The notes under the pieces: generated by a model
What the model saw: only the letters and a program-made list of their open reading frames with translations
The model's database searches: none
Told to the model about the DNA's origin: nothing
Position numbers and translations under genes: made by a program
NCBI GenBank assembly: GCA_964367775.1
Contig: CAYIYX010000003.1
Coordinates: 1 to 25,152 of the forward strand
Direction: 5' to 3'
DNA length: 25,152 bases
Source: an uncultured Candidatus Saccharibacteria bacterium
Lineage (GTDB): Bacteria > Patescibacteriota > Saccharimonadia > Saccharimonadales > Saccharimonadaceae
In this document: positions 8,640-9,592 of the stretch, piece by piece
Numbering within the stretch: position 1 is the first letter of the stretch
Layout: every line of letters begins with the position of its first letter

Positions 8640-9041
8640 ATGAAAAACAATAAAAAACTTCTAGCGGTGATCGGGTTGGCAGTTGTACTGCTCGGGCTTG
8701 GGGGTTGGTTCGTTTTTGGGCAGAAACCTGCGACGGAACAAGCGACGACCGTGTCTCAGGCGCAAAGCGCGATTACTTTTTCTGCCGACGGGAAAGAGGC
8801 AAGCTATAAGGGACAAGACGGCAAGACGGCGCTTGAGGTTCTGAAGAGTCTGACGAGCATCGACAGCAAAGAAAGTGCGTATGGCACGATGGTAACAGGT
8901 ATTCACGGAGTAAAGGCAGAAGACAACAAAAACTATTGGGCACTCTACGTCGAAGGCGCTTACGCGAGTGAAGGCGCAGGAACACTTAAGACTAAGAGTA
9001 CCGACACATTAACGTGGAAGTTAGAGGCCATAACACAATGA
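8640..9041 (+). CDS. Membrane-anchored DUF4430 (transcobalamin C-terminal-like) protein, putative cobalamin-binding
   Basis: N-terminal basic plus hydrophobic anchor. TALEVLK, YGTMVTGIHGVKA, YWALYVEG...EGA is the DUF4430 pattern. AAAGGTGA RBS at 8626-8633. Confidence 0.85.
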   Translation: MKNNKKLLAVIGLAVVLLGLGGWFVFGQKPATEQATTVSQAQSAITFSADGKEASYKGQDGKTALEVLKSLTSIDSKESAYGTMVTGIHGVKAEDNKNYWALYVEGAYASEGAGTLKTKSTDTLTWKLEAITQ

Positions 9042-9592
9042 AAAAATGGACATCTGACGCAAACCTAAAGCTTTTGTTGGTTCTTGCACTCGTTGGTTTA
9101 GGTGTTTGGAGCCGTTTTGTACCGCACCCTGCGAACTTTACAGCGCTTACCGCGGTCGCTCTGTTCGGCGGGGCGATGTTGCCGAAACGATGGAGTGTTG
9201 TTGTCCCGGTACTCGCGATGATTTTGAGTGACCTATTTATAGGAGTGTCATCCATTTCGTTTGTCGTTTGGTTTAGTTTTGCACTAGTAGCACTTGTAGG
9301 ACATTACATAAAAACGCGAGCTAGCGTCACGAACGTTGTCATGGCGAGCCTGGCTGGATCGACTATATTCTACCTAGTGACAAACTTTGCGGTTTGGACT
9401 GAAGGACGCATGTACGGCATGAATCTTGGTGGGCTTATACAGTGCTACATAAATGCATTGCCGTTTTTCCGTAACATGCTTGTTGGTGACCTTATATACA
9501 GTGGATTACTGTTTGGCCTGTATGCTCTCGTTATCTACGGCGTCAAGACCCTACGTAGCGCGAAGCACATTCAGGTAAACCAAGTAAATTAA
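9038..9592 (+). CDS. DUF6580-type membrane protein, putative ECF S-component-like cobalamin transporter (184 aa)
   Basis: SRFVPHPANF..LTAVALFGGA, SDLFIG, FYLVTNFAVW, CYINALPFFRNMLVGDL; about 5-6 TM. ATGA overlap with the DUF4430 gene gives start 9038. Confidence 0.8.
   Translation: MKKWTSDANLKLLLVLALVGLGVWSRFVPHPANFTALTAVALFGGAMLPKRWSVVVPVLAMILSDLFIGVSSISFVVWFSFALVALVGHYIKTRASVTNVVMASLAGSTIFYLVTNFAVWTEGRMYGMNLGGLIQCYINALPFFRNMLVGDLIYSGLLFGLYALVIYGVKTLRSAKHIQVNQVN

Follow-up and report, generated by a model that had tools for sequence, protein, structure and literature searches.

The window, by which the whole stretch of 25,152 nt analysed here is meant, contains two overlapping genes on its forward (+) strand that are preceded by a cobalamin riboswitch. 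The first of them (ORF1, positions 8640-9041, 133 aa) encodes a DUF4430 protein made up of an N-terminal membrane anchor, a linker of ~25 aa and a transcobalamin beta-domain-like fold, and the second (ORF2, 9038-9592, 184 aa) encodes a DUF6580 protein, predicted to be a six-helix membrane protein with the ECF S-component/BtuM fold, which we propose as a corrinoid carrier. As read directly from the letters, both genes share 4 bases in an ATGA start/stop overlap (9038-9041, + strand), an arrangement that points to translational coupling. In this regard, a methionine is aligned at ATG-9038 in 91% of 230 homologues, so that this codon, and not the GTG at 9014, is the true start of ORF2. Searches with the Pfam models assigned ORF1 to DUF4430 (PF14478, 51.8 bits for a cut-off of 23.8, E 1.1e-13) and ORF2 to DUF6580 (PF20221, 169.4 bits for a cut-off of 27, E 9.8e-50, model positions 4-155 of 162), and NCBIfam offers no model for either ORF. 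The NCBI label of DUF6580 is 'putative transport protein', and the closest protein relatives carry a Saccharibacteria label. The same two genes stand together, often overlapping by 0 to 4 nt, at 49 of the 109 other DUF6580 loci inspected, which indicates that the gene arrangement is not due to chance. Genes for EcfA/EcfT, BtuCDF or TonB-dependent receptors are absent from the window, and its sole ABC ATPase (17969-18808) pairs with an FtsX-type permease. An earlier note on this DNA had described a coupled pair of these two families below a cobalamin riboswitch, with none of the above transporter genes nearby, and each part of that description is confirmed: both ORFs and their overlap are there, the two profiles score above the Pfam cut-offs, and Rfam recognises the riboswitch.

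The leader of the cassette carries the elements of a genetic switch. A consensus scan detected a promoter-like site (TTTTCA-17-TATAAT, 8368-8396, + strand; 10/12 matches, a pattern match only) ahead of the aptamer of riboswitch 1 (8422-8524, + strand). The latter corresponds to the Rfam family RF01689 (AdoCbl-II, clan CL00101) with 39.4 bits for a gathering threshold of 36.5 (E 2.8e-6), covering the full model from 1 to 81, and also matches RF00174 at 27.5 bits; it is the sole gathering-level Rfam match in the window. The aptamer ends 116 nt before the ATG of ORF1, on the same strand, and the leader folds with z = -3.15 in comparison with shuffled versions. Downstream of the aptamer there is a terminator-like hairpin (8577-8600, or to 8610 with its T-run, + strand), also present in the MFE fold, with a 10-bp stem (5 GC pairs) and a 4-nt loop that are followed by TTTTTGTTTT. 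The hairpin and TTTTTGTTTT separate the aptamer from the ribosome-binding site, which makes transcription termination the most likely mode of action of the switch, with the element at 8577-8610 as the likely transcriptional OFF expression platform. A second, weaker riboswitch (9598-9687, + strand; 23.4 bits with RF01689 and 28.2 bits with RF00174, both below gathering) comes after the stop codon of DUF6580, where it marks the boundary of the cassette and leads the next unit, composed of a 587-aa orphan gene and an Nramp gene. An equivalent of riboswitch 2 precedes the orphan gene in sibling genomes, and the two riboswitches are the only convincing ones of the cobalamin type in this genome.

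The DUF4430 protein, which occurs once in the genome, starts with a basic N-terminus and a hydrophobic stretch of 20 residues, LLAVIGLAVVLLGLGGWFVF, without a lipobox Cys, followed by a low-complexity linker and then by the domain; several homologues bear a lipobox instead. Its AF2 model (pLDDT >90 over residues ~45-133) superposes on the isolated human transcobalamin beta domain in both the apo (5no0) and the CNCbl-bound (5np4) structures with an rmsd of 1.2 Å over 77 columns and 21% identity (Foldseek, probability 1.00). The earlier note had claimed a resemblance to the cobalamin-binding domain of transcobalamin, which this superposition bears out. Other Foldseek matches were a bacterial DUF4430 structure (3u7z, among the top ones) and 2bb5, with probability 1.00 and rmsd of 1.2-1.7 Å, and lower in rank the beta domains of whole transcobalamin, haptocorrin and intrinsic factor. 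The human beta domain has been crystallised alone with cyanocobalamin (5np4). Compared to transcobalamin, the cassette has the beta half only, with no alpha/alpha-barrel partner, and its protein is membrane-tethered whereas transcobalamin is soluble.

As for DUF6580, which also occurs once in the genome, the AF2 model (pLDDT 92.9) is composed of six long helices. The best Foldseek matches were the BtuM structures 8c7p and 8ovv (with cyano- and hydroxocobalamin; TM 0.65-0.69, 17% identity), at weak E-values (0.05) and with 8c7p in first place (TM 0.67-0.69), and next came FolT, RibU, PanT, BioY and ThiT. In an exhaustive comparison with VIA-align, the top 16 matches were S-components, BtuM, CbiM or MreD (rank 14), at Z 10-13.7 over residues ~6-170, and the next match dropped to Z 7, which makes the assignment of the modelled protein to the six-helix ECF S-component fold a solid one. 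The same cannot be said of a preference for BtuM among these proteins, as the Z scores are tied (13.2 for BtuM 8ovv, at 17% identity) and BtuM is the nearest by identity alone. At the sequence level, the sole match of the DUF6580 profile in the PDB was 6fnp_A, a membrane protein of 182 aa in the ECF-CbrT entry, a weak and marginal link (E 0.012) restricted to the N-terminal 90 residues; neither this profile nor two proteobacterial DUF6580 proteins matched BtuM up to E 10. A single DUF6580 protein retrieved nothing meaningful from the PDB sequences, and a look-alike search of the ESM Atlas gave unnamed clusters only, all <0.9. A conservation analysis of 230 sequences revealed family-invariant residues (R26, N33, D65, F111, N116, Y126, P142 and F143), all of them present in ORF2. 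Helix 1 (LVLALVGLGV) contains small residues and no clear AxxxA docking motif, with ALLTA as the aligned CbrT segment (compared by sequence only). Fused DUF4430-DUF6580 proteins were sought as Rosetta-stone evidence and the idea was abandoned, since the candidates, a single protein of 379 aa and a small number of long ORFs, contained DUF6580 only.

The gene content of the genome delineates the need that such a cassette may cover. The assembly (0.96 Mb in 127 contigs) is 94% complete, so gene absences mean here that a gene was not found. Searches for B12-dependent enzymes, together with those for other reductases, led to a 935-aa class II B12-dependent NrdJ (NF005122, 1373 bits for a cut-off of 859), encoded next to NrdR, as the only ribonucleotide reductase found; NrdD was not found in the genome, and a match to the B12-binding model PF02310 was a false positive in an IMP dehydrogenase. 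A CobA/BtuR-type corrinoid adenosyltransferase is encoded, whereas CobS was not found, either in this genome or in 10 relatives. Altogether, the presence of NrdJ and BtuR, with CobS, EcfT and BtuC not found, indicates that the cell needs a complete cobamide from outside and can adenosylate it. In the same genome, the search for a shared ECF module elsewhere gave zero EcfT/CbiQ candidates, and no FecCD/BtuC, PduO-type adenosyltransferase or BacA-type ABC membrane domain was found. With EcfT, FecCD/BtuC and BacA-type ABC proteins all not found, no inner-membrane B12 importer of a known type is apparent in the genome.

The link between DUF6580 and cobalamin extends well beyond this locus. Rfam scans of the flanks of DUF6580 loci (1.5-2 kb, ~330 kb in total) located a cobalamin-clan riboswitch near 29 of 83 other loci, belonging to Patescibacteria, Nanoarchaeia, Bacteroidota and Thermoanaerobaculia. 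Riboswitches of other classes were absent from the ~330 kb scanned, and more than half of the loci had no riboswitch within 1.5-2 kb. Such riboswitches were found in 8 of 29 Patescibacteria loci (each of them upstream on the strand of the gene, and four scoring above gathering), in 12 of 40 loci of other phyla and in 9 of the 10 closest Saccharibacteria-type loci, and in none of four same-family loci, though all four retain the gene pair. In six Bacteroidota loci a stand-alone DUF6580 gene is immediately preceded by a strong riboswitch (75-109 bits) and immediately followed by a second one, which in the one locus checked (L066) precedes a TonB-dependent receptor, and a Thermoanaerobaculia locus (L051) shows the order riboswitch, TonB-dependent receptor, DUF6580. 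A TonB-dependent receptor gene is found directly upstream of DUF6580 in 16 of 35 diderm loci, and genes for beta-propeller proteins, BtuR and a BtuF-type binding protein occur there as well. Of 151 Patescibacteria genomes sampled, 43 encode DUF6580. In 13 of these 43 carriers nrdJ occurs within ~4 kb on the strand of DUF6580, and proteins of radical-SAM size with a B12-binding domain are encoded in each of five carriers that lack NrdJ, with the gene abutting DUF6580 in one of them. The simpler expectation that DUF6580 presence tracks NrdJ presence was discarded, as the pattern was not clean (NrdJ in ~31/43 carriers versus ~55/108 non-carriers). The earlier note had assigned a cobalamin substrate to DUF6580 from the context of a single locus, an assignment that several independent lines support, namely the riboswitches, the nrdJ neighbours, the B12-binding ORFs of radical-SAM size and the TonB-dependent receptors, and no riboswitch for another ligand was seen near the homologues scanned. 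The 49 loci in which DUF4430 is the immediate upstream partner are all of CPR/DPANN type, and the partner is absent, among the 109 loci, from those labelled Ignavibacteriota, Bacteroidota, Planctomycetota or similar. DUF6580 thus appears as the constant element, whereas the capture device changes with the envelope, from DUF4430 in CPR/DPANN to TonB-dependent receptors in diderms.

On the basis of the anatomy of the locus, the family memberships and folds of both proteins, the fact that neither EcfT nor BtuC was found, and the linkage with B12 across phyla, we propose, with a probability of roughly 70%, that the cassette is a self-contained, B12-repressed corrinoid scavenging system in which DUF6580 would carry the substrate without an ECF ATPase module. 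Under scarce cobalamin, the riboswitch would let transcription pass the terminator at 8577-8600, and translation of ORF1 and ORF2 would be coupled. The DUF4430 protein, presumably anchored through its N-terminal helix on the outside of the cell membrane, would capture complete corrinoids through its transcobalamin-beta-like domain, concentrating them at the membrane, and may hand them over to DUF6580. The latter would bind the corrinoid from outside, probably through the L1 loop PHPxNF together with R26, N33, D65, N116 and Y126, and would carry it inwards across the membrane independently of an ECF ATPase module, in the way proposed for BtuM. Once inside, the corrinoid could be adenosylated by BtuR and used by NrdJ.

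As an alternative to a solitary carrier, DUF6580 could be conceived as a B12 S-component energised by a partner that goes unrecognised, either a divergent T-component with its ATPases or some other ABC system. The fold of the protein is that of the ECF S-components, its sole sequence link in the PDB is with CbrT, which needs an ECF module (PMC5997447), and Pfam models often miss proteins of Patescibacteria because of their divergence; moreover, a CbiQ/EcfT match does exist in 4 of 20 non-CPR carriers, with none in the other 16. However, the CbiQ model that gave no candidate in this genome, nor in any of the 43 Patescibacteria carriers, did find EcfT in 3 of the 151 Patescibacteria genomes, all three non-carriers, and in 11 of 14 controls. 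In the same line, none of the 109 loci inspected has ABC genes accompanying the cassette, and the only ABC pair of the window is of the FtsX type. An unrecognised energiser is therefore considered unlikely, and the solitary nature of the carrier, which the earlier note had deduced from the window, stands at the scale of the genomes sampled, with EcfT in none of the Patescibacteria carriers and in a minority of the non-CPR ones.

The distribution of the cassette among close relatives is patchy. Within the family, DUF6580 was found in 5 of 41 genera, and within the genus in 2 of 9 genomes, all nine of which keep the same ~940-aa RNR, so that in the seven genomes without DUF6580 the reductase is maintained without the cassette, and this cannot be the sole B12 route in the genus. 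The cassette is an accessory element within the genus and not a fixed essential system. In three siblings the locus shows the order DUF475, riboswitch, orphan-gene homologue, and the alignment by blastn of one sibling locus (L135) to window positions 7227-8547 and then 9719-10652 reveals that the segment 8548-9718 (+ strand), absent from the sibling, is an indel bounded by the two riboswitch copies. The segment, which may have originated either by insertion of a riboswitch-led module or by deletion through recombination between tandem riboswitches, comprises the DUF4430 and DUF6580 genes together with terminator 1 and the riboswitch 2 aptamer. In the other carrier of the genus (L136) the succession riboswitch-DUF4430-DUF6580 is kept with 62% identity, with no match to the flanking genes of the window, and appears to occupy a different genomic place, which suggests that the module is portable.

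Such an accessory character lends some weight to a second alternative, in which the pair would handle B12 at the membrane without importing it, as a dock, as a signal receiver or in corrinoid processing (decyanation or ligand exchange): siblings that keep the same RNR do without the cassette, which implies a further way of entry in this genus, and BtuM itself catalyses decyanation (PMC6072759). In diderms, however, DUF6580 follows a BtuB-like receptor controlled by a cobalamin riboswitch, the very position in which an inner-membrane transporter would be expected, in loci that show no BtuCD, and the structurally characterised proteins of this fold in the list of matches are all substrate-translocating subunits with the exception of MreD (rank 14). 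A role devoid of import is for these reasons regarded as quite improbable. A substrate other than complete cobalamin (haem, cobinamide, or a lower ligand as for CblT) is very improbable indeed, because, although secreted transcobalamin alpha- and beta-like proteins beside an ECF S-component have been linked to haem uptake in L. sakei (bioRxiv 10.1101/864751) and ECF-CbrT also carries cobinamide (PMC5997447), control by a cobalamin riboswitch occurs here and at 29 other loci, the known need of the genome is AdoCbl for NrdJ, and cobinamide and DMB were discarded as substrates since CobS was not found in this genome or in 10 relatives, which would leave cobinamide or a lower ligand unusable.

Among known systems, the self-contained scavenging proposed here comes closest to BtuM of Thiobacillus denitrificans (6FFV, 8C7P, 8OVV), which complements E. 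coli ΔFEC (ΔbtuF ΔmetE ΔbtuC) without an ECF module (PMC6072759); the same complementation assay has served for ECF-CbrT (PMC5997447). Like DUF6580, BtuM is a six-helix protein of ~20 kDa with the S-component fold, present in genomes without an ECF module, and it is encoded beside btuB-type receptors in diderm bacteria, as DUF6580 is beside TonB-dependent receptors. H28 and D67 of BtuM may be the counterparts of H30 and D65, an equivalence by sequence position only. In contrast, HMMER detects no similarity between both families, and the invariant Cys80 of BtuM-Td, the cobalt ligand and defining feature of that protein (PMC6072759), has no invariant counterpart in DUF6580; BtuM also lacks a DUF4430-type partner. 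DUF6580 is, furthermore, a far larger and broader family, with 6720 clusters at 50% identity (E up to 1e-3) in comparison with the 131 jackhmmer matches reported for BtuM, and with more than 584 loci in GTDB representatives. By analogy, the cassette would work as the BtuM type does, with a solitary S-component-type carrier, but it shares neither the invariant Cys nor a detectable homology with BtuM.

A second point of reference is the ECF-CbrT of Lactobacillus delbrueckii (6FNP), where a nrdJ-cbrS-cbrT-pduO cluster led to CbrT (PMC5997447). This B12-specific S-component operates in a B12 auxotroph reliant on NrdJ and is clustered with nrdJ and an adenosyltransferase, which resembles the proximity of nrdJ to DUF6580 in the 13 Patescibacteria carriers mentioned above. 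CbrT, however, needs an EcfAA'T module and ATP, and EcfT was found neither here nor in any of the 43 Patescibacteria carriers. As for the extracytoplasmic partner, transcobalamin-like proteins of this kind have a precedent in ECF operons of Firmicutes: the lsa1836-1840 operon of L. sakei encodes, like the cassette, extracytoplasmic transcobalamin-like binders together with an S-component (bioRxiv 10.1101/864751). That operon has its own EcfA/EcfT and both transcobalamin halves and is tied to haem (bioRxiv 10.1101/864751), whereas the cassette is riboswitch-controlled and has the beta half only and no ECF module.

[quoted passage not shown] Patescibacteria rely on the B12-requiring NrdJ for their DNA precursors and cannot make B12, and no importer has been assigned to them yet. 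No publication on DUF6580 was found in the literature searched, where mentions of DUF4430 were incidental and nothing linked transcobalamin-like proteins with a riboswitch; a search for Saccharibacteria, cobalamin and riboswitch retrieved one work (paper and preprint), about thiamine. If DUF6580 is a carrier, a function would be provided for thousands of genes annotated as 'hypothetical' or 'putative transport protein' in CPR, DPANN, Ignavibacteriota, Bacteroidota and others, B12 cross-feeding could be better predicted from metagenomes, a second, independent example of solitary S-component transport would be at hand, and the transcobalamin beta domain would emerge as a stand-alone bacterial B12 catcher.

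A broader reading can be put forward tentatively, at somewhat less than even odds. DUF6580 would represent a large undescribed family of ATP-independent corrinoid carriers (~6,700 clusters at 50% identity, spread over many phyla) whose S-component fold evolved separately from BtuM, working in the envelope-poor cells of CPR/DPANN as a two-component system fed by a membrane-tethered transcobalamin beta domain, and with His30 and Cys136 as alternative cobalt ligands. A two-component system of this kind, if true, would be the first binding-protein-assisted, ECF-less S-component transporter. With regard to the ligands, the 230 sequences contain no invariant Cys, and the only common one is C136 (71%, otherwise Ser or Ala), whereas His30 of the L1 loop PHPxNF is conserved in 93%. 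The 13 sequences without His30 all keep C136 and the 67 without Cys136 all keep H30, so that none of the 230 lacks both residues when ~4 such double-negatives would be expected by chance, an estimate that ignores phylogeny and leaves this apparent complementarity between H30 and C136 as suggestive only.

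Pairwise comparison with one sibling genome of the same genus (locus L135, in G220:C82) revealed that positions 8548-9718 of the window are an indel. Besides the DUF4430 and DUF6580 genes, this segment contains terminator 1 as well as the riboswitch 2 aptamer, whereas the sibling has a single riboswitch immediately 5' of its homologue of the orphan gene. Since the breakpoints lie within or adjoin both riboswitch copies, the indel would fit either recombination between tandem riboswitches or the insertion of a riboswitch-led module. On the right side, the sub-threshold cobalamin riboswitch 2 (9598-9687) heads the orphan gene (9765-11528), encoding a 587-aa protein of no Pfam family, followed by a gene for an Nramp-family transporter (11573-12913). 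Fast-diverging homologues of the orphan gene were found behind a riboswitch in the genus siblings L135, L137 and L139. On the left side, the gene of a DUF475/TerC-family membrane protein (7228-8274, minus strand), divergent from the riboswitch promoter region, is the conserved neighbour of the riboswitch locus in siblings of the genus.

The sole other DUF6580 carrier in the genus (L136, at G173:C117:10986-14116) keeps the order riboswitch-DUF4430-DUF6580, with a protein identity of 62% to the window. A search of this locus for the DUF475, orphan and Nramp genes of the window gave no match, so that its genomic context appears to differ, suggesting that the riboswitch-DUF4430-DUF6580 module is mobile or was gained twice. 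The tandem-switch layout of the window (riboswitches 1 and 2) is shared by six loci of Bacteroidota/Chitinophagaceae (L066, L073, L075, L086, L090 and L104), where two strong cobalamin riboswitches occur in series, one immediately 5' and the other immediately 3' of a stand-alone DUF6580 gene. In L066, the one locus checked, the second riboswitch precedes a TonB-dependent receptor, and in L073 the next ORF after it encodes a Diphthami_syn_2 protein.

An alignment of 230 DUF6580 family members revealed none lacking both His30, in the PHPxNF loop, and Cys136 (window protein numbering; a raw count that ignores kinship): all sequences without His30 retain Cys136, and all those without Cys136 retain His30. 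The two residues may represent alternative cobalt ligands.

Several Patescibacteria genomes contain three to five full-length matches in tandem to NrdJ, the class II, B12-dependent ribonucleotide reductase (G011:C12:15391-23408, G088:C46:264-8296, G132:C39:9546-19234, G124:C10:20891-26273 and G024:C1:781946-787588), some of which share one continuous reading frame 1200-2100 aa long; the G132 array encloses a DUF6580 gene. Six loci (L053, L059, L074, L084, L107 and L111) come from MAG records titled 'uncultured Gammaproteobacteria', labels that look doubtful: L059, L084, L107 and L111 carry a CPR-style DUF4430-DUF6580 pair, and the one genome checked (G153, of L053) has only 0.9 Mb. In L121, from a genome of the same family as the window's, a DUF4430-DUF6580 pair is preceded at a distance of about 800 nt by a sub-threshold match to the type III hammerhead ribozyme (3172-3225, minus strand; 30.7 bits versus a gathering threshold of 48.5).
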